DNA of 51,981 nucleotides from a bacterium (GTDB lineage Bacteria; Patescibacteriota; Saccharimonadia; Saccharimonadales; SZUA-47), in assembly GCA_030430915.1 (NCBI GenBank), contig JAUIKH010000001.1, positions 1-51,981 of the forward strand. The letters are read 5' to 3'. Under the pieces are notes generated by a model. It was not told where the DNA came from. It did no database searches and was given only the letters and a program-made list of their open reading frames with translations. Shown here piece by piece: positions 1 to 38,003 of this stretch (positions are counted from its first letter, which is position 1; each line of letters opens with the position of its first letter). The translations under genes were made by a program, and so were the position numbers.

Positions 1-471
<471 letters not shown>

Positions 472-695
472 TAAAATGTTGTTACACTTTTACTTCCGAA
501 GAAGTTAAAGATAGCAACAACAGTTAGATAAGTTTTAATCTATACTCAGTAAAAATTTACTGACTTTGTTTAAAAAACATATATCAACCCTGACAATAAA
601 TTGTCAGGAAAATTGACGTTGATTTGCACTATTCAAATTTTAACGTACGCGTATTTAGAGACACTTAAAGACAGAACCCTAAACACTTAGAATTC

Positions 696-15579: not shown

Positions 15580-15586
15580 TTAAAAA

Positions 15587-15982
15587 GTTAGATACATGAA
15601 TAAGCCGGGTCCTGTCCCATACTAACTGTACGGGAGCGGTCATCTATCTAGTTCCGCATTCACACACGGAATCAAGCGGTTAAACGCAAGACCTGGTAGG
15701 ATACCAGCCGATAAATCGACAAAGCCTCGCTCCTTGCAGCAGACAGGGTTTACCAATCTTCAAAGATCACTCAATGAAGTCTGTGAGCTCTTACCTCACT
15801 CTTTTCACCTTTTCCTAAGTTGCCCTAGGTAGTATTGTCTCTGTGGCACTTTCCCTAAGATTACTCTTGGTTGCCGTTAGCAACTGTCATTTCCTTAGTG
15901 CTGCCCGGACTTTCCTCCCCTCACCACCGTTACCAAAATTTTAGTCAAAGTGGTGAGGGGCGACCGCTACTATGTATCTAAC
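15587..15982 (-). ncRNA. rnpB: RNase P RNA (bacterial type A-like)
   Basis: Minus strand contains GAGGAAAGTCCGGGC and ACAGGACCCGGCTTA (the two P4 strands). P1 pairs GTTAGATACAT (15982-15972) with ATGTATCTAAC (15597-15587). P3-like hairpin CCCCTCACCAC...GTGGTGAGGGG. Confidence 0.88.
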
Positions 15983-26554: not shown

Positions 26555-26631
26555 GGGCGATTAGCTCATTTGGCTAGAGCGCTACATTGACGTTGTAGAG
26601 GTGGCAGGTTCGAATCCTGCATCGCCCACCA
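26555..26631 (+). tRNA. tRNA-Val (anticodon GAC), CCA encoded
   Basis: Hand-folded cloverleaf. Acceptor GGGCGAT/ATCGCCC, D arm GCTC..GAGC, anticodon arm CTACA-TTGACGT-TGTAG, T arm GCAGG-TTCGAAT-CCTGC, then A-CCA. An extended -10 TGATATAAT lies at 26531-26539. Confidence 0.9.
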
Positions 26632-30847: not shown

Positions 30848-30921
30848 TGGTGCGAGTAGCGGGAGTCGAACCCGCCTCTCATGCTTGGGAAGCATACATA
30901 CTACCGATGTACTATACTCGC
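30848..30921 (-). tRNA. tRNA-Gly (anticodon CCC), CCA encoded
   Basis: The minus strand folds as follows. Acceptor GCGAGTA/TACTCGC, D arm GTAC..GTAT, anticodon arm TATGC-TTCCCAA-GCATG, T arm GCGGG-TTCGACT-CCCGC, then A-CCA. The discriminator is A rather than the U usual for bacterial tRNA-Gly. Confidence 0.8.
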
Positions 30922-33003: not shown

Positions 33004-33654
33004 CTAGTTTACTTTTTTGAAAATATAGTTATTAGCGACCTTAGTGTAGCCAATACCTTTCATTGAAGCCTGTATCTCAGATTTTGTTGGATGTAAACCC
33101 TTCTTAGGAGTGAAATAACTGTCCAAATCACTGGTGCTTATCCGCCAGGTGTCTTTAGTGTGATTAACGACAGCTATAAGTTCATATTCAGGATCAACAT
33201 GTGCCATCGCTGCATCACCATGACTATTATTAGCTAGCAATATGCCGTTGTTTTTCAATAGATTCTTACCAGCTTGAGACACAAACCCTGCGTATTGTGA
33301 AATGAGTAAATCAAAGGACTCAACCTCAATTGGTAGTGGCTTTTCATAGTTTTGCTGTGCAACAAATATTTCTGGATCTTCTCTGTATTGCTTGTTTTTG
33401 ATCACCATTTGTCTCACTTCTTTGTCCTCAAAGAACTGTTTTACTCGCCTGTCGCTATCAATAAATGCCGTTTTTGGGTAAAAAAAGGCAGGCGTAATGT
33501 GCACAAAACTACCCAAATATATCGCAGATTTTATTTGGTATGTGTCACGAAGTAATTCAAAAAGATGTAGACGCTCAAATTCATTATCAATGAAGTACTT
33601 TTTGTATAATTCCAAATTTTTATTCATAAGGCTATTGTAGCAAACAGAAAACAC
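33004..33654 (-). CDS. hypothetical protein (possibly Rossmann-like; function not recognised)
   Basis: 216-aa ORF. The start may be the internal MNKNLELY. No confident motif. Confidence 0.5.
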   Translation of the reverse strand: MFSVCYNSLMNKNLELYKKYFIDNEFERLHLFELLRDTYQIKSAIYLGSFVHITPAFFYPKTAFIDSDRRVKQFFEDKEVRQMVIKNKQYREDPEIFVAQQNYEKPLPIEVESFDLLISQYAGFVSQAGKNLLKNNGILLANNSHGDAAMAHVDPEYELIAVVNHTKDTWRISTSDLDSYFTPKKGLHPTKSEIQASMKGIGYTKVANNYIFKKVN

Positions 33655-33740
33655 TATATCTCCATAACGCTTATATCAATGAACAGTAGCTCAAAAGTAT
33701 TTTAACTTCAGTTTAAAACCAGCTGAGTTTGTTCGGCTGT

Positions 33741-33770
33741 AATTCAAAACACCCCATATCAGGGGTGTTT
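33741..33770 (-). terminator. intrinsic terminator downstream of the tRNA-Asp 3'-end copy
   Basis: Minus strand reads AACACCCC-TGATAT-GGGGTGTT followed by TTGAATT. Confidence 0.55.
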
Positions 33771-33782
33771 GGATTTACGTTC

Positions 33783-33801
33783 TGGTGGGCCCGACCGAAT
33801 T
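33783..33801 (-). repeat. partial copy of the tRNA-Asp 3' end (T-loop edge, acceptor strand, CCA)
   Basis: TGGTGGGCCCGACCGAATT versus TGGCGGGCCCGACCGGATT at 33978-33996. That is 17/19 identical, same orientation, 195 bp apart. Confidence 0.85.
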
Positions 33802-33977
33802 AGCGGGCTATAGCCCTTCTTTCGTTTGTTCGAAAAGCAAATACCTTCGAAAGGTGCTTTCTTTTCTTCTCTGCACTTCGCGACCGGCGCTCCTTACAGG
33901 AGCAACCGCCGATTTAAATCACGAGAAGAGTCTCGTCAAAGAAAAAAGCCCCATCATAAATGATGAGACTTTTGTCT

Positions 33978-34055
33978 TGGCGGGCCCGACCGGATTTGAA
34001 CCGGCGATCTCCTCCGTGACAGGGAGGCGTGTTAGGCCAGCTACACCACGAGCCC
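33978..34055 (-). tRNA. tRNA-Asp (anticodon GUC), CCA encoded
   Basis: Minus strand. Acceptor GGGCTCG/CGGGCCC, D arm GTGT..ACAC, anticodon arm CCTCC-CTGTCAC-GGAGG, T arm GCCGG-TTCAAAT-CCGGT, then G-CCA. A terminator hairpin plus T-run follows at 33969-33942. Confidence 0.9.
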
Positions 34056-34150
34056 GCATTTTTGTCTTAATAGTTAGATTAAGTCTACCTGTTAGGACTT
34101 CGAGAAGTTTAGCATTTTAAGAAGTTAAAATCAACTATTTACCTTAATAC

Positions 34151-35218
34151 CTAGTTTTCAGGTAACGATATATATAGCCTATAAGGCTGCTTTTCTTTCA
34201 TGTCATTCAGTACACCCGATAAATCATTAAGCATAAATATTATGTGTGCGCCTTCTATTTTGTCGCCTTCTCTACCAACGTTTTTTACAATTTCTAAAGC
34301 GTAACCTGTTCTATATGGAGTGACAGTGATATCTGAATATTGCCCTTCTTCAAGCTTGAATAGAGTATCAACAGTCTGTTGTGAGACATTACGATTATTA
34401 GCATCAACCAGCCCAAACTCTCCACCATTTTCTTTAGTACCCTCATCGTTTGAATACTCCTTAGCAACCTCTGCAAAATCTGCTCCCGCTTCCAGCTTGG
34501 CTAGAGCTTCTTTAGCTCTATTCTCCGTATCTTGATCGAGTGCCCTTGTTACCTTTTGAGCCAGTAATTCATCGCTTAGACTTCGCTTAAAGTCGTCCGT
34601 AGACCAATCCCAATAATTTCTCAGAACGTCTTCAAATATCTCATCTGTACTACCAAGACGGTTTTGCTCTCTTGCAATTCGAATCTGATTATTAATCTCT
34701 TCATCGCTGACTGTTATATTATTTTCTTCAGCAATTTTTTTTATATAAGCATGGTTAACTACATCATCCAACGCTCGTTTTTTATAATCCGTCAGCTGAG
34801 CTTTACCTTCATCAGATTCAAAACTAAGTTGCTGTTGGGTTTCGTGATAATGTATATATTGCCGTAGCTCAAATAGGTAGTTCTCATATGCAATTAGCGT
34901 GTTTCCAGTCCTAGCAATCGGAAAAGGAATTACTTTAGTCACCTGATACATGAAGCTGGACGTCGTCTGTTGACGATAAAGCATTAGAACAGATATGGTT
35001 GTAAACAATAGTACTATCGCTATCAGGATAGACGTAGTTAGTATTATGATTCGATGCTTAGAATGTTGCAGCGGATAAATGTACTTACGTGCACCAGACA
35101 ACACCTCTTCTCTATGCTCTGCTACATTATCGTTTGTAATTCTAGGTACTTTTGTACTGCCGACTGTGTCTTTCTTTAAAGCACGCTTGTCCTTGAATTT
35201 TTTAATTCTCTTTTTCAA
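34151..35218 (-). CDS. membrane-anchored parvulin-type peptidyl-prolyl isomerase (PrsA/SurA-like)
   Basis: 355-aa ORF. N-terminal TM helix and a SurA-N-like helical region. The C-terminus ADFAEVAKEYSNDEGTKENGGEFG..Y.. is the PpiC/rotamase signature. Confidence 0.75.
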   Translation of the reverse strand: MKKRIKKFKDKRALKKDTVGSTKVPRITNDNVAEHREEVLSGARKYIYPLQHSKHRIIILTTSILIAIVLLFTTISVLMLYRQQTTSSFMYQVTKVIPFPIARTGNTLIAYENYLFELRQYIHYHETQQQLSFESDEGKAQLTDYKKRALDDVVNHAYIKKIAEENNITVSDEEINNQIRIAREQNRLGSTDEIFEDVLRNYWDWSTDDFKRSLSDELLAQKVTRALDQDTENRAKEALAKLEAGADFAEVAKEYSNDEGTKENGGEFGLVDANNRNVSQQTVDTLFKLEEGQYSDITVTPYRTGYALEIVKNVGREGDKIEGAHIIFMLNDLSGVLNDMKEKQPYRLYISLPEN

Positions 35219-35770
35219 TTATCTGCTCTTTTCATGGCTAGTTTTTTGTGCACGTTCGTCAGGCTGACCTATTACTGTACCGTGATCCCTGAGAATTATT
35301 GCTAATTCTTTTGACACAGCGGCTGGATGATGAACATCATTTATAACAATTTCACCTAGGTAAGTCTGTATTATTATTGTACCAAATCCCAGTAATGTTT
35401 CTTGTATTCCAACTACCTGATAGTTCACAGACTGCACATGATTCAGCCCGATATCGGCAAAACTCTTAGTAAACATACCCTTCTGAGTTATCTGGATAAA
35501 TCTCTGGTCTGTTGCAATATAGACTGTAAAGTACCAATAAATCCAGGACGGAAAAGCAACAATAATACCTACGATAAAGCCCGCCGCCAAACCTCCATAA
35601 AAATAGCTTAGTTCAGGCTTAATGAAAGATGGTATCGTTCCTAAAAGTATTGCTATCATGAACAAAATCAGGCCTTTACGCATAACAACCGGATGCTTCC
35701 TAAATGCATAAAGGACTTCTTCATCCTCATATTGGTCTTTAAAAGCTAGCTTTTTATTCTGCTTAGGCAT
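35219..35770 (-). CDS. bacterial PH-domain (YdbS/YdbT-like) membrane protein
   Basis: 183-aa ORF. FRKHPVVMRKG, then two TM helices, then a beta-rich domain. Abuts the PPIase gene. Confidence 0.6.
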   Translation of the reverse strand: MPKQNKKLAFKDQYEDEEVLYAFRKHPVVMRKGLILFMIAILLGTIPSFIKPELSYFYGGLAAGFIVGIIVAFPSWIYWYFTVYIATDQRFIQITQKGMFTKSFADIGLNHVQSVNYQVVGIQETLLGFGTIIIQTYLGEIVINDVHHPAAVSKELAIILRDHGTVIGQPDERAQKTSHEKSR

Positions 35771-35873
35771 ACCTAGTAGTAGCCTCTTGGGTAGTTATAT
35801 TCATTACCATAAGCATAGTTTACCTTAGAAAGTCGACAGTTTACAGTGTATATACTATAATTCATCTAATATT

Positions 35874-35928
35874 GGCCTGGTAGCTCAATGGATAGAGCAG
35901 CTCATGACCTCAAGGAGAAGGTTGTAGG
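35874..35928 (+). pseudogene. 5' pseudo-copy of tRNA-Arg (acceptor to T-stem 5' strand) with a degenerate anticodon loop
   Basis: 35874-35904 is identical to 36066-36096 (31 nt), and 35914-35928 is identical to 36104-36118 (15 nt). The anticodon-loop region differs (ATGACCTCAA versus CGTCCTAA). There is no T loop or 3' acceptor. The upstream TATAAT box is also duplicated (35856 and 36047). Confidence 0.8.
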
Positions 35929-36065
35929 CGAAAAATGCCAGTGGCATTTTGAGGAGTCTTTACTTGGTTGAACGAGCCCAGCCTCTGTTTTAAGAGGCTG
36001 GGTTGCCGAGTGAACATGGATAGTCGACTCTTAGAGTCGAACCCTTTATAATTAAATCTATACTT

Positions 36066-36141
36066 GGCCTGGTAGCTCAATGGATAGAGCAGCTCCGTCC
36101 TAAGGAGAAGGTTGTAGGTTCGACTCCTACCCGGGTCGCCA
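36066..36141 (+). tRNA. tRNA-Arg (anticodon CCU), CCA encoded
   Basis: Acceptor GGCCTGG/CCGGGTC (two G-U pairs), D arm GCTC..GAGC, anticodon arm GCTCC-GTCCTAA-GGAGA, T arm GTAGG-TTCGACT-CCTAC, then G-CCA. Confidence 0.88.
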
Positions 36142-36144
36142 TAT

Positions 36145-36173
36145 AAAAAGCACTACATTTTGTGGTGCTTTTT
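36145..36173 (+). terminator. intrinsic terminator after tRNA-Arg
   Basis: AAAAA-GCACTAC-(5 nt)-GTGGTGC-TTTTT. Confidence 0.65.
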
Positions 36174-36308
36174 ATATGATTATCGGTAAGTAGAAACTAC
36201 AACCTGTAAGGTTGAAGGTGAGCAGTGCCATTCGAGCACTGCTCAAGAGAATCTTTCAGCAATGAAACTTGTTTAATGCTTGAAAGTTCTGGGCCCGCAG
36301 AATGTGGG

Positions 36309-36329
36309 CGACTCCTACCCGGGTCGCCA
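36309..36329 (+). repeat. perfect 21-bp direct repeat of the tRNA-Arg 3' end
   Basis: CGACTCCTACCCGGGTCGCCA at 36309-36329 is identical to 36121-36141 (T loop, T stem, acceptor, CCA). The offset is 188 bp. Confidence 0.95.
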
Positions 36330-36490
36330 ATTTTGATTACTATTAAGTCCTTCATGCCGTAATATACAACTAAAAACTTAAACAAAGTTAAAACAAATAA
36401 TTATTGTTCTGACTTTCTTAAGAACGTTAGAATATACTACAAAGTAATTACTTTAAGCCATATTACCCATGATGAATAAACAATTAAAGA

Positions 36491-36955
36491 TTACCCTCGT
36501 TCGTGGCCTTCGTATATGTGCAGATACTCTGATTTATCATAGCTAAACAACTCATCGTCGTTAAAAAACCTAGCTACTTCTTTTTTACCATTTTCTTTAC
36601 TGTCTGAGGCATGCACCAAATTCCTGCCTGTTCCGATAGCCATATCCCCTCTTATTGTTCCGGCTTCTGCTTCTCTGGGATTCGTTGCCCCGAGAATTAT
36701 TCTAATAGAATTAACACACTCAAAACCTTCGATTGCCATTACAATCACTGGTGAGCTCTTCATAAAATTTTCTAATCCTTTATAAAACGGCTTGTCAGTC
36801 AAATGTGAATAATGAGCTTCCAGCAAAGCACTATCTAAAGATGTCATTTTGATTCCAAGAATCTTTAACCCCTTCATCTCAAACCTTTTTATAATATCTC
36901 CGACTAAACCCCTTTGCACTGCATCTGGCTTTAAAATTATTAGTGATTTCTCCAT
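36491..36955 (-). CDS. ndk: nucleoside-diphosphate kinase
   Basis: 154-aa ORF. Motifs: SLIILKPDAVQRGLVGDIIKRFE, GATNPREA, RNLVHASDS (catalytic His). Confidence 0.95.
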   Translation of the reverse strand: MEKSLIILKPDAVQRGLVGDIIKRFEMKGLKILGIKMTSLDSALLEAHYSHLTDKPFYKGLENFMKSSPVIVMAIEGFECVNSIRIILGATNPREAEAGTIRGDMAIGTGRNLVHASDSKENGKKEVARFFNDDELFSYDKSEYLHIYEGHERG

Positions 36956-37046: not shown

Positions 37047-38003
37047 ATGTGTCGTACAATAAAATTAATGAGCCAAGACAAAAAACAATTTTCAAAACTA
37101 AAAACCGACTTTCTAGAATACTTAGAAATTGAACAAAACAGATCACAAAAAACTATCCAGAACTATGACCATTACTTAACTAGGCTTATAGATTATGCAG
37201 GAGACATTAATATTTCAGAAATTGACCCTGAGTTAATCCGTAAATGGCGCCTATGGCTTAACAGGCTAGGCACTAATACATCAGATGAGCTACGCAAGAA
37301 CACCCAGAACTACCATCTGATAGCCTTACGTAGTTTTTTACGCTTCTGTGCTAAAAGAGGCGTAGAAGCTATGCCAGCAGATAAGATTGAGTTAGCAAAA
37401 TCTGCACGTAAACAAGTTACTTTCCTGAACCCTGAAGAACTAGAAAGACTATTTAATGCACCGAAAATTGATAAGGATATAGGCTTGCGTGACCGTGCCA
37501 TTTTAGAGCTGCTGTTCTCTAGTGGACTGCGTGTGTCTGAGTTAGTCGGCTTGGATAAAGATGACGTAAATTTAAAACGTAAAGAATTCATGGTAAGAGG
37601 TAAAGGCCAGAAAGACCGGCCAATATTTATTAGTGATGCAGCAGCCTGGTGGCTTAAACAATACTTAGACAAGCGTACAGACAACTCTAAGCCACTGTTC
37701 ATACGCTACAGCGGAAACAAAAAGGTTTCAACCAGTGGCAATTACTACAGACTTACGGTCAGGAGTGTTCAGAGGCTAGTCGCCAGATATGCGAAGCTAG
37801 CTGGAATAACGAAACATGTCAGCCCTCATACCTTACGTCACAGCTTTGCAACTGATTTATTAATGAATGGTGCAGACTTGCGCTCCGTTCAAGCCATGCT
37901 AGGCCATAGTAATATTTCAACTACTCAAATATACACACATATAACGGACCCACACCTAAAAAGTGTCCATGAAAAATTCCACAGTAAAAAAATTATTGAC
38001 TAA
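37047..38003 (+). CDS. tyrosine recombinase XerC/XerD family
   Basis: 318-aa ORF (or a start at ATG 37068). SAM-like N-domain. Catalytic pattern: LFSSGLRVSEL (R), HTLRHSFAT (H-x-x-R), LGHSNISTTQIYTH (H..Y). Confidence 0.85.
   Translation: MCRTIKLMSQDKKQFSKLKTDFLEYLEIEQNRSQKTIQNYDHYLTRLIDYAGDINISEIDPELIRKWRLWLNRLGTNTSDELRKNTQNYHLIALRSFLRFCAKRGVEAMPADKIELAKSARKQVTFLNPEELERLFNAPKIDKDIGLRDRAILELLFSSGLRVSELVGLDKDDVNLKRKEFMVRGKGQKDRPIFISDAAAWWLKQYLDKRTDNSKPLFIRYSGNKKVSTSGNYYRLTVRSVQRLVARYAKLAGITKHVSPHTLRHSFATDLLMNGADLRSVQAMLGHSNISTTQIYTHITDPHLKSVHEKFHSKKIID

Follow-up and report, generated by a model that had tools for sequence, protein, structure and literature searches.

Among described systems, the closest in layout to the units reported here is the rtT RNA (rttR) of E. 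coli, encoded by the 178-bp repeats of the tyrT-tyrV operon (Rfam RtT, RF00391). In this system, a copy of the tRNA's own 3' end, starting in the T loop and ending in CCA, lies ∼180 nt downstream of the tRNA, and the units occur in tandem. Each unit contains the T-stem 5' strand (GAAGG), an insert beginning with (G/A)TGAGAA(C/G), an antisense/sense T-arm hairpin and AATCCTTCCCCCACCACCA, and is laid out as the T-stem 5' strand, GTGAGAAC and the insert, followed by AATCCTTC..CCA. This order yields a multi-hairpin domain closed by the T stem, as in the units described below. The rtT RNA was reported to be stress-responsive, with an unknown function and mode of action.

Other systems share some traits with these units. 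Archaeal tRNA genes carry intervening sequences (non-canonical and mobile introns) in the D, anticodon and T loops or come in pieces (split and permuted genes), and related introns occur across many tRNAs, a pattern interpreted as transposition (cited in PMC10714607). Integrative elements that target tRNAs leave the gene intact and flank the inserted DNA with a direct repeat of the 3' end from the T arm (attL/attR). REP/REPIN sequences and other hairpin miniature elements are short, abundant, non-coding and strand-specific, with compensated hairpins; REP/REPIN, integron attC and CTX-phage attP also exemplify insertion at hairpin loops, in which a folded strand can mimic a duplex target. Bacterial group I introns place a structured intervening sequence inside a tRNA gene, in the anticodon loop.

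The window analyzed here (the whole 51,981-nt stretch of contig JAUIKH010000001.1) contains two intact tRNA genes that are each trailed by a copy of their own 3' end, as an earlier note on this DNA had observed:

36066-36141, plus strand: intact tRNA-Arg(CCT) (ARAGORN; Rfam tRNA, 57.7 bits)
36309-36329, plus strand: tRNA-Arg 3'-end copy, comprising the T-loop 3' part, T-stem 3' strand, acceptor 3' strand, G73 and CCA
33978-34055, minus strand: intact tRNA-Asp(GTC) (ARAGORN; Rfam tRNA, 61.5 bits)
33783-33800, minus strand: tRNA-Asp 3'-end copy with A73 replacing G73 (two mismatches in the last 17 nt)

The Arg copy lies 188 nt past its gene and is identical to 36121-36141 at 21 of 21 positions (the tRNA-Arg 3' end being CGACTCCTACCCGGGTCGCCA), and the Asp copy lies 195 nt past its gene, its A73 variant also being present in L007 (L numbers designate related loci). 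Such copies were searched for (last 17 nt of the tRNA, same strand, at most two mismatches) in the window and 80 related Saccharibacteria loci. These 81 sequences contain 24 downstream copies, all belonging to tRNA-Arg(CCT) or tRNA-Asp(GTC), and 22 of the 24 end 139-200 nt past their tRNA. The units are polymorphic among related genomes, with empty sites in L009, L016 and L070 and filled sites in L058 and L072.

Integrases that target tRNA genes classically leave direct repeats of the tRNA 3' end beginning in the T loop, and a phage-integrase-family gene lies 0.7 kb away. The repeats might thus be decayed att scars, formed by insertion of an island or prophage at tRNA 3' ends and near-complete deletion of the island, so that they enclose only the attL-proximal and attR-proximal remnants. 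The earlier note had argued that simple integration scars cannot account for the pattern and had raised a recurrent family as an alternative, and both points hold. No copy lies at kilobase distance and no island bounded by the same repeats was seen (81 sequences, 4 kb on each side of the anchor gene), the inserted DNA being just ∼170-190 bp and lacking an integrase; in viral contigs the inserted element (class A, below) is nearly absent, with one match. In addition, a structured insert separates the T-stem 5' strand copy from the 3' copy, where the crossover region of a core site should be continuous, there are mirror-image units whose 5' copies stop within a D, anticodon or T loop, and class A covaries strongly. 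This reading is already largely refuted and we give it almost no credence; the note's alternative of miniature integrative elements is likewise not supported in the integrase/att sense.

The note described a bare 3'-end copy and a spacer, but the spacers are tRNA-flanking modules, in which a truncated duplicate of the neighboring tRNA has a loop split by a structured element. The downstream modules run from the tRNA's terminator through an antisense copy of the intact T arm, a fold-back loop of 3-7 nt, the sense variable loop and T-stem 5' strand, and the insert, to the remainder of the tRNA through CCA. The T loop is split after G53/T54 by class A inserts and a few nt later by class D inserts. 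The two downstream modules in the window consist of the following, in addition to the 3'-end copies:

36142-36177, plus strand: intrinsic-terminator-like hairpin and T run directly 3' of tRNA-Arg (18-nt arms, 94% complementary; fold)
36189-36205, plus strand: X, antisense copy of intact tRNA-Arg from the variable loop through the T-stem 5' strand to the T loop
36200-36214, plus strand: fold-back hairpin CAACC-TGTAA-GGTTG (CAACCTGTAAGGTTG), joining X to the sense copy
36208-36219, plus strand: X', sense copy of the variable loop, T-stem 5' strand and T54 (AAGGTTGAAGGT)
36220-36308, plus strand: class A structured insert in the T loop of the tRNA-Arg copy (R1 match, covariation, fold)
33939-33977, minus strand: intrinsic-terminator-like hairpin (13-pair stem) and T run after tRNA-Asp
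33899-33920, minus strand: X of the Asp unit, antisense copy of tRNA-Asp nt 41-63 (score 11.5)
33883-33903, minus strand: fold-back hairpin GCTCC-TGTAA-GGAGC, then the sense T-stem 5' strand (GCCGGT)
33801-33882, minus strand: Asp insert, class D (start and end common to L020, L064 and L074)
33742-33770, minus strand: second terminator-like hairpin past the Asp unit

Both spacers start with a terminator, as previously noted; that of tRNA-Arg is missing from a simple terminator scan, probably because its stem is G-C-poor. Both units show an antisense fold-back copy. The Arg X (17 nt) is 88% complementary to 36109-36125 (score 13.5, compared to 4.9 ± 1.0 in shuffles), while the Asp X spans the anticodon-stem 3' strand through the T loop, matching at 18 of 22 positions with one gap. 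The two TGTAA-loop hairpins reported earlier as a shared CCTGTAAGG hairpin exist (36200-36214, and GCTCCTGTAAGGAGC at 33903-33889), and each is the fold-back between the antisense and sense copies of its tRNA's own sequence: they have in common the TGTAA loop and its closing CC/GG pairs, but the remainder of each stem derives from the unit's own tRNA. The resemblances in GATT..ATCGG and GAAG(G)TG..CAG do not reflect homology. The X' stretch tracks the local tRNA in L001, L013 and L039. In 80% of downstream units (n = 40, median z 5.8) and about half of the upstream units, the antisense copy extends across the insertion site.

The Arg insert, ∼90 nt long and strand-specific, forms a three-helix junction that the flanking stem closes; it comprises hp1 (36220-36244), the junction CAAGA, hp2 (36249-36289) and hp3 (36291-36309). 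Model R1 matches 36214-36318 with 80.3 bits (E 4e-16), and the insert with its flanks (130 nt) folds with a z of -5.7. A search of Rfam 15 with this insert gave no match, and the class A family, with at least 111 copies, is absent from Rfam 15. Compensatory changes were found in 21 of 39 pairs among five class A sequences. Across 107 distinct copies, in an alignment fitted to the model and with the metagenome set picked by a pattern fixing hp1, 93.4% of cells pair (35-52% in slid controls) and 35 of the 39 pairs have changes on both sides, a covariance check that the earlier note had proposed; none of 500 shuffles reached the observed pairing and covariation values. One hp3 G.U pair is conserved in 93 of 103 copies, G.U outnumbers A.C in the internal helices (99 vs 34), and an AGU triloop and junction nucleotides are conserved.

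No sequence or structure homology between rtT and the Saccharibacteria units is detectable: the RtT model gives 133-137 bits on the E. coli units and no score on the Saccharibacteria loci, and model R1 gives nothing above chance-level scores in E. coli. The layouts also differ: the E. coli unit has its fold-back hairpin within the insert and pairs its 3' strand with four acceptor nucleotides (GGGG), no terminator separates the tRNA from the unit, and neither upstream units nor D- or anticodon-loop versions are known there. Of the two alternatives in the earlier note, that of ∼170-190-nt RNAs ending in a mimic of the neighboring tRNA's T arm and acceptor end comes nearest to the observed anatomy, and it corresponds to the rtT layout.

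Class A copies are found next to many different tRNA genes. Forty of 136 copies are located 50-95 nt past a tRNA and 52 are located 120-350 nt ahead of one, with the neighboring tRNA on the same strand in 91 of 92 cases; the neighbors have 14 tRNA identities in all (10 downstream-type, 13 upstream-type). The loops that host them (T, D or anticodon) belong almost without exception to a redundant, partial tRNA copy adjoining an intact gene. Most 5' copies break off near nt 15-25, 37, 46-56 or 62-65, corresponding to the D, anticodon and T loops. Class A can occur several times per contig, also in tandem arrays, and nested copies are located in the hp3 of others; arrays and allele mosaics are present in L084, L124, L147 and L169.

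We read these modules, with a probability of about 0.5, as products of a structured, mobile element that makes a second copy of part of the tRNA it targets. Class A would be a selfish element specialized on T, D and anticodon loops, also entering the T-arm-like hp3 hairpin of other copies and spreading independently of splicing. Its copy step may duplicate part of the target tRNA, so that an intact gene would always be left beside the insert-bearing fragment. The antisense, uninterrupted T arm mirrored at a short loop is an apparent trace of hairpin-primed (snap-back) synthesis or template switching, in which the insert-bearing tRNA fragment would serve as the template, with the folded insert skipped; integration next to the gene via the shared tRNA segment would be the following step. 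Once placed, the units are probably transcribed and trimmed by tRNA end-processing enzymes, as is E. coli rtT. No reverse transcriptase, recombinase or ligase was linked to the class A element, no recent insertion was caught with filled and empty states in near-identical strains, and the element is not known in a free or circular form.

A third unit, missed by the earlier note, lies upstream of tRNA-Arg and consists of a 5' tRNA copy with an insert:

35833-35861, plus strand: P1, promoter-like site TCGACA-17-TATAAT ahead of the upstream unit (consensus match 11/12)
35874-35928, plus strand: 5' partial copy of tRNA-Arg, nt 1-53 (repeat and alignment evidence)
35929-36022, plus strand: variant insert, its middle part different from class A
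36023-36052, plus strand: sense T-loop 3' part (GTCGACTC), antisense T-loop copy (AGAGTCGAACC, 36033-36043) and TATAAT

This unit is the mirror image of the downstream units, running from a promoter through tRNA nt 1-53, the insert, a short sense stretch and an antisense stretch to the intact gene's promoter, and its 5' copy, own insert included, sits 192 nt before the gene. Both promoter-like sites match the consensus well: the candidate promoter P1, identified by consensus match, is 12 nt 5' of the partial copy, and P2, that of the intact gene (TCGACT-17-TATAAT, 36024-36052), matches at 10 of 12 positions. The first hairpin of the insert is class-A-like (AAAATGCC-AGT-GGCATTTT), R1 matches weakly at 35924-36034 (20.9 bits, E 0.06), and the variant insert is also found in L005. 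The sequence GACTC..GAGTCGAACC is conserved across four genomes. The anticodon loop of the copy is enlarged to 9 nt (ATGACCTCA, 35904-35912), and the ACCTCAAGGA variant recurs unchanged in the corresponding units of L005, L007 and L012, so that all four Arg upstream units keep a 9-nt ACCUCAA loop; the remainder tracks the unit's own tRNA.

This invariant loop is no less compatible with an RNA gene under host selection than with a selfish element. So is the Arg downstream unit, which occupies one and the same locus, with compensated structure, in the window and in L001, L013 and L039 (where a flanking protein shares just 56-71% identity with that of the window). The units might be small RNA genes of the rtT type, functional RNAs arisen from tRNA duplications, co-transcribed with the tRNA or transcribed next to it, processed by the enzymes that mature tRNAs and acting via their tRNA-like parts (e.g. 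in translation, the stringent response or tRNA processing), with the insert as a functional domain instead of a parasite. Each upstream unit has a strong promoter-like site of its own, and E. coli rtT is a processed RNA of like layout. However, the occurrence of one insert beside 14 tRNA identities and in three loops, self-nested, arrayed, several per contig and variably present among related genomes, suggests a spreading element rather than one gene, and the sequence reveals no function. We consider such RNA genes a rather unlikely explanation.

The inserts could also be true tRNA introns, removed by self-splicing or by an endonuclease and ligase, or the partial copies could be halves joined in trans, as in archaeal intron-bearing, split and permuted tRNA genes. 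Position 37/38, the canonical intron site, is among the insertion positions, and the antisense stretch could align both flanks. In L055 a complete tRNA-Gly(CCC) is interrupted by the class A insert alone where relatives have a normal gene, in L009 tRNA-Gly(CCC) is interrupted by a different insert class, and intron-containing tRNA-Gly(CCC) and tRNA-Thr(TGT) were predicted in cultured Saccharibacteria (PMC8694215). However, L055 is the sole simple interruption in ∼136 class A copies, and the others adjoin an intact gene, as expected if splicing does not rescue the interruption. Moreover, tRNA-Gly(CCC) would be dispensable if a tRNA-Gly(UCC) were present. Unlike archaeal introns, whose bulge-helix-bulge is cut by splicing endonuclease, the inserts reside in a bacterium, lie nearly always in a redundant partial duplicate instead of the sole gene copy, and show no apparent motif of this kind at their junctions, where T54 and the next G pair with the CA of CAAG inside the insert (by eye). 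Group I and II features, including a group I core, are absent, and there is no Rfam ribozyme match; the insert is also shorter than group I introns (∼90 vs >200 nt) and lies mostly in the T loop, not usually in a functional gene copy. Most loci hold just one kind of unit, so the halves cannot be joined. Removal by splicing, in cis or in trans, is thus very improbable.

A further possibility is a DNA-level element acting on folded single strands (a folded site or hairpin-ended miniature transposon, resembling REP/REPIN, IS200/IS605 derivatives, integron attC or CTX-phage attP), mobilized by an HUH or tyrosine (Xer-like) recombinase that is encoded elsewhere and targets tRNA-arm hairpins in single-stranded DNA. 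All insertions fall in the loop of a palindromic arm (T, D, anticodon or another copy's hp3), orientation is strictly to one strand, hairpins stand at both insert ends, and the antisense copy can pair with both flanks, bulging the insert out and mimicking an uninterrupted T-arm duplex. Covariation and G.T tolerance would likewise be expected if selection acted on folded single-stranded DNA. The window encodes a XerC/D-like tyrosine recombinase (37047-38003), but this gene resembles the ordinary chromosomal one, and no associated transposase, dedicated recombinase, or RAYT, TnpA or IntI partner was seen here. Unlike these elements and sites, the element is associated with tRNA genes only, and elements of such kinds are not known to make target duplications of 20-70 bp. 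The conserved G.U pair, AGU triloop and unpaired nucleotides of the three-way junction are more typical of RNA, and an orientation tied to transcription direction also fits RNA better, making a folded-DNA element unlikely.

The Arg and Asp spacers of the window, weighed as members of one family in the earlier note, carry inserts of different families. The Arg insert belongs to the strongly covarying class A, while that of Asp appears to belong to another class, D, whose consensus fold is weak, the Asp unit without its terminator (138 nt) folding with a z of -0.85. The Asp insert contains the hairpin GGGC-TATA-GCCC, followed by GCTAAT. Alignment of the two spacers gives local and global scores ∼3 sd above mononucleotide shuffles, a modest excess that is partly due to the terminators. 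The promoter-like site TTGACG-17-TAAATC proposed for the Asp unit is unlisted by a simple promoter scan, while its proposed second terminator is present (33770-33742). In many downstream units a second terminator is present and bears no relation to the first, so that the duplication does not always reach the transcript end, a point against the mobile-element reading.

Two tRNA genes in the window, tRNA-Asp(GTC) at 34055-33978 (minus strand) and tRNA-Arg(CCT) at 36066-36141 (plus strand), are placed by both ARAGORN and Rfam, and the gene between them encodes a SurA/PpiC-like protein. As claimed in the earlier note, each tRNA is followed directly by a terminator (hairpin and T run) and, further on, by a copy of its own 3' end, which is perfect for the last 21 nt of tRNA-Arg (36309-36329) and has two mismatches for the last 17 nt of tRNA-Asp (33800-33783). 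The arrangement had been described as a spacer followed by a repeat; the repeats are real, but they belong to units in which a truncated copy of the neighbouring tRNA is split in one loop by an insert. The Arg downstream unit has the following parts.

36142-36177, plus strand: terminator-like hairpin after tRNA-Arg, separating the unit from the tRNA
36189-36205, plus strand: intact tRNA-Arg variable loop, T-stem 5' strand and T loop, copied in antisense (repeat I3)
Between antisense and sense copies: short loop
36208-36219, plus strand: variable loop, T-stem 5' strand and T54, copied in sense
36220-36308, plus strand: class A insert, 89 nt
36309-36329, plus strand: T-loop remainder, T-stem 3' strand, acceptor 3' strand, G73 and CCA

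Coding capacity between the repeats does not exceed a few short mechanical ORFs (45-111 aa). The order of parts in the Asp unit is identical.

33977-33939, minus strand: terminator
33920-33899, minus strand: antisense copy of tRNA-Asp nt 41-63
33903-33889, minus strand: fold-back hairpin, then GCCGGT
33882-33801, minus strand: insert, 82 nt, then ATTCGGTCGGGCCCACCA

The hairpin CCTGTAAGG, noted previously as shared by the two spacers, does occur twice in the window, but in the Arg unit it is the fold-back of the antisense copy on the sense tRNA copy. Direct alignment of the two spacers, which had been proposed as a check, scores only ∼3 sd above mononucleotide shuffles, with much of the score coming from the terminators, so the two window spacers alone do not prove a family, and homology of the Arg and Asp inserts is not demonstrable.

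A third repeat, overlooked in the earlier note, lies 192 nt upstream of tRNA-Arg, and the unit containing it is a mirror image of the downstream one, consisting of a promoter-like site, tRNA nt 1-53, an insert, the sense T-loop 3' part and an antisense T-loop copy.

35833-35861, plus strand: strong promoter-like site (consensus match) before the 5' tRNA copy
35864-35928: copy of tRNA-Arg nt 1-53 and 13 nt of upstream flank, anticodon loop two bases larger
36024-36052, plus strand: second promoter-like site (consensus match), before the intact tRNA-Arg

The -35 region and spacer of the second promoter-like site are formed by the sense T-loop 3' part and the antisense T-loop copy.

The class A insert has a conserved structure. 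Inserts alignable with that of the window are found after tRNA-Arg in the related Saccharibacteria loci L001, L013 and L039, and in L008, where the insert is located in a 5' copy of tRNA-Asp. RNAalifold analysis of these five gives three hairpins (hp1, hp2 and hp3) closed by the T stem, with compensatory changes in 21 of 39 pairs. The signature of the class is a three-way junction comprising hp1 (UGCC-AGU-GGCA), GCAAG, hp2, and hp3 with a G.U pair. The covariance model R1, built as the earlier note had advised, matches the Arg downstream unit at 36214-36318 (80.3 bits, E 4e-16), gives no match in the Asp unit, and scores the insert of the upstream Arg unit as a variant (20.9 bits, E 0.06). Searching the loci with R1 adds copies in L055 and L009 as well as weak variants in upstream units; strong matches occur in 7 of 81 Saccharibacteria sequences, all seven being Saccharibacteria.

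A metagenome scan with the hp1 pattern yields at least 120 contigs and at least 111 R1-aligned copies, 107 of them distinct. Among the matches listed, these 107 copies have 93.4% pairing cells, compared with 35-52% when partners are slid, and both-side changes in 35 of 39 pairs, none of 500 shuffles reaching any observed measure; hp1 is fixed by the collecting pattern in these figures, and the alignment is fitted to R1. The hp3 G.U pair is conserved in 93 of 103 copies, and the internal helices contain 99 G.U against 34 A.C (both among the matches listed), the excess of G.U over A.C showing that the fold is selected on the tRNA-sense strand. The relatives of the one metagenome contig checked are Saccharibacteria/Patescibacteria. 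The element is almost missing from viral contigs, with a single class A match, and so is not phage-borne.

The class A insert has no match in Rfam 15, and in permissive searches (window 33500-36600 at E<=10; ten element-bearing loci at E<=0.1) only the tRNAs are real. Terminators or base composition account for the weak matches (SpF25, rimP leader and others), and the CUGAUGA of L001, which recalls a hammerhead motif, is not conserved. Group I and group II introns are rejected, the insert being ∼90 nt and no Rfam intron or ribozyme matching under either threshold.

Other inserts occupy the same module layout. The start and end of the Asp insert (class D) are common to L020, L064 and L074, with a compensated hairpin before GCTAAT. 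The class consensus fold is weak (-5.6 kcal/mol, 4 covarying pairs), and the window Asp unit minus its terminator (138 nt) folds no better than shuffles (z -0.85); we rank it as a second class, with weaker support. Further classes are B, found after GGTTCGAT, C in L001, L007, L009 and L010, and a pair in L027. The two L027 units, after tRNA-Arg and tRNA-Asp, begin with an antisense tRNA 3' end including TGG and have long identical stretches (e.g. AGCGTGAACTCGAAAGCCCACTGGGC), sequence evidence for probable exchange between units inside one genome. The Asp 3' copies in the window (33783-33800) and in L007 carry A73, where tRNA-Asp has G73; since A73 is common to both, the copy may travel with the unit rather than arise as a fresh duplicate of the resident gene.

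Recurrence was examined in 80 Saccharibacteria loci fetched via the SurA/PpiC-like gene between tRNA-Arg and tRNA-Asp, together with the window, counting same-strand copies of the last 17 nt of a tRNA with at most 2 mismatches. All 24 copies found are at tRNA-Arg(CCT) or tRNA-Asp(GTC), the neighbouring tRNA-Thr and tRNA-Gly having none, and 22 of the 24 end 139-200 nt past the tRNA, which rules out chance. Six loci also have a 5' tRNA copy 180-240 nt upstream. Within the window, neither tRNA-Val (26555-26631) nor tRNA-Gly(CCC) (30848-30921) is flanked by a copy of its ends or has a class A match. Empty sites, a comparison proposed in the earlier note, are present in related genomes: with identical tRNA-Arg sequences, L016 and L070 are empty and L058 and L072 filled, and L009, with two differences in its tRNA-Arg, is empty too. 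Across the loci L001-L080, tRNA-Arg(CCT) and tRNA-Asp(GTC) point in either direction with respect to the SurA-like gene, the unit, where present, following its tRNA; the tRNA modules seem to invert or relocate as blocks.

These data bear on whether the repeats are scars of integrase attachment sites. The earlier note had doubted that plain integration scars would suffice, and rightly so: the repeats have a near-constant spacing, some units are mirror images, the insert covaries, and there is no continuous core site, the T-stem 5' copy being parted from the T-loop/T-stem 3' copy by an 82-89-nt insert. Decayed islands are unlikely because decay would not shrink every island to one length; in the DNA examined, none of the 24 repeats is at kilobase distance and no integrase-bearing island occupies the same site. 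Direct repeats of a tRNA 3' end are what such scars would leave, yet we regard this origin as very improbable.

Placement was tabulated for 136 class A copies (129 metagenome pattern matches listed and 7 from the genome loci and window). Among the matches listed, 40 follow a tRNA at a distance of 50-95 nt (median 76) and 52 precede one by 120-350 nt, on the same strand as the tRNA in 91 of 92 cases. Ten tRNA identities are represented downstream, 13 upstream and at least 14 in all. The 5' copies of upstream units mostly end at about nt 15-25, 37, 46-56 or 62-65, which are D-loop, anticodon-loop (after nt 37) or T-loop positions. Copies are also nested inside hp3 of other copies, hp3 resembling a T-arm 5' half; L084 carries a unit-unit-tRNA-unit array, and L124 a second, almost complete tRNA copy holding two inserts. 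Most copies lacking a tRNA neighbour are downstream units whose tRNA went uncalled, and Rfam identifies no host RNA for copies without one. Two non-tRNA contexts recur (L097, L098, L125 and L181; L121, L167, L184 and L200): repeats of ATAAAAAGGCCTCCGGAGGGGGTGGGCACCGC, and a stem of the form ..GCGCGATGAGAG[insert]..CCTCTCAT; Rfam detects no host RNA in them.

That the insert is a tRNA intron is suggested by tRNA-Gly(CCC), the usual neighbour of tRNA-Thr(CGT), whose T loop is split by a class A insert in L055 (8158-8322) and by another insert class, after GTTCGAT, in L009 (6575-6700). For a cultured Saccharibacterium, tRNA-Gly(CCC) has been reported to contain an 'intron' (PMC8694215). ARAGORN misses the interrupted gene in both loci, and the element accounts for some tRNA genes missed by gene finders. 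Interrupted tRNAs were sought by in-silico insert removal, with 138,556 candidate joins run through ARAGORN. Most joins combine a 5' partial copy with the downstream intact gene, which shows the partial-copy nature of the units, and among the ∼136 copies in the matches listed the L055 gene, ordinary in relatives, is the only simple interruption. Elsewhere the insert nearly always sits in a redundant fragment beside an intact gene, which argues against efficient splicing. In the class A consensus, T54 and the next G pair with CA of the CAAG inside the insert and hp3 abuts the 3' flank; by eye, no bulge-helix-bulge (3-nt bulges around a 4-bp helix) is apparent at the junctions. Given the redundancy of the insert-bearing fragments, an intron is highly doubtful.

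The flanks of the units differ with every tRNA identity and must therefore be made anew from each target. Among the matches listed, 80% of 40 downstream units repeat the intact T arm in antisense within 35 nt before the sense copy, usually from the variable loop over the insertion site and on into the T loop or the 3' strand of the T stem (median z relative to shuffles, 5.8); an equivalent is seen in roughly half of the upstream units. If the flanks are made anew, the antisense copy must come from a mechanism and not from shared ancestry. Such a mirror image of the uninterrupted arm, beside the interrupted one, would be expected from hairpin-primed (snap-back) synthesis or from template switching in which the folded insert is passed over. 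In L085, L148, L150, L009 and L027 the repeat takes in the terminator as far as the T run, but the second terminator is unrelated to the first in many other units, and no claim is therefore made that transcript ends bound the duplication.

We favour a selfish mobile structured element, with a probability of about one half, because of the spread over 14 tRNA identities and three loops, the nesting, the arrays and the patchy presence. If mobile, it would represent an unusual parasitism of essential RNA genes that does not depend on splicing, in which partial target duplication avoids the cost of insertion. Alternatively, the units could be host-selected RNAs resembling rtT, the repeat RNA of the E. 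coli tyrT-tyrV operon. The Arg downstream unit persists at one locus in four deep lineages, and in the upstream Arg units of the window, L005, L007 and L012 the 9-nt anticodon loop (35904-35912 in the window; ACCTCAAGGA) is invariant while other positions track each genome's own tRNA, which suggests a selected function for this ACCUCAA loop. Both observations favour function, and at least some units may be functional; we consider host selection unlikely. The two readings are those that remain, and they are not mutually exclusive; host RNAs would make up a new class of regulators derived from tRNA in minimal-genome organisms. The ACCUC of the loop, the complement of GAGGU, is similar to the anti-Shine-Dalgarno CACCUC.

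An element acting as folded single-stranded DNA might instead have the Xer-type recombinase encoded nearby as its partner.

37047-38003, plus strand: tyrosine recombinase, XerC/D type, 318 aa (Phage_integrase and SAM-like N domain)

This gene is 0.7 kb from the Arg unit, beyond the NDK gene, and is probably the chromosomal Xer; RAYT or TnpA (HUH) genes, as would accompany a REP/REPIN or IS200/IS605-derived miniature element, are absent among seven ORFs scanned next to the window units. We consider a single-stranded-DNA element quite improbable.

The closest comparison for the units is with the 178-bp repeats of the E. coli tyrT operon. These tyrT/rtT repeats have been known for decades, and to our knowledge their origin and function are still unclear. 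The E. coli unit comprises GGGG, the T-stem 5' strand GAAGG, an insert starting (G/A)TGAGAA(C/G), an antisense/sense T-arm hairpin with further hairpins, and AATCCTTCCCCCACCACCA, and in RNAfold the T stem closes the domain. Like it, the Saccharibacteria units lie downstream of a tRNA, form a T-stem-closed multi-hairpin domain and end in their own tRNA 3' end (T loop to CCA), a layout found in the window and 40 downstream units among the matches listed; unlike it, they have a terminator-like hairpin standing between them and the tRNA. The RtT model (RF00391, gathering score 45 bits) gives 133-137 bits on four E. coli units and no match in window 33500-36600 (E<=10) or ten element-bearing loci (E<=0.1), and R1 has no significant match in E. 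coli. The Saccharibacteria units have the rtT layout and lie outside the RtT family. An acceptor-stem minihelix as in E. coli was dropped because the GGCCCG/CGGGTC pairing of the window is, by eye, not kept in L001, L013 and L039. In the E. coli K-12 tyrT region (L201, 1286709-1287622), the tyrT-tyrV spacer and three rtT repeats each have the T-stem 5' strand and then (G/A)TGAGAA(C/G), with which the Saccharibacteria insert also starts, and a GTTGCC-ACA-GGCAAC hairpin recalls hp1; the models detect no homology in either case. According to a 2024 preprint, rttR responds to stress and has an unknown mode of action.

More speculatively, class A could be a new self-propagating structured RNA (small ribozyme or guide-like) that invades exposed loops, both in tRNAs and in other copies of itself, at the RNA or single-strand level and is fixed by fold-back copying that duplicates part of the target, so that Saccharibacteria tRNA genes become flanked by arrays of insert-bearing pseudo-tRNAs, E. 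coli rtT being what is left of this process in Proteobacteria; this extended scheme is possible, though we hold it only tentatively.

Class A is an abundant element, non-coding and very strongly supported by covariation, with no counterpart in Rfam 15. In the searchable literature we find no description of structured T-loop/D-loop inserts or of such modules in Patescibacteria, the relevant reports being PMC8694215, which comments in general terms on tRNA introns in these bacteria, and a single note on rttR. The element accounts for the rearranged look of Saccharibacteria tRNA loci, and provides a common anatomical framework and comparative handle for the tyrT/rtT repeats. The window contains two further RNA genes.

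1-474, minus strand: 5' end of the 16S rRNA gene, truncated where the window ends
15585-15980, minus strand: class A RNase P RNA
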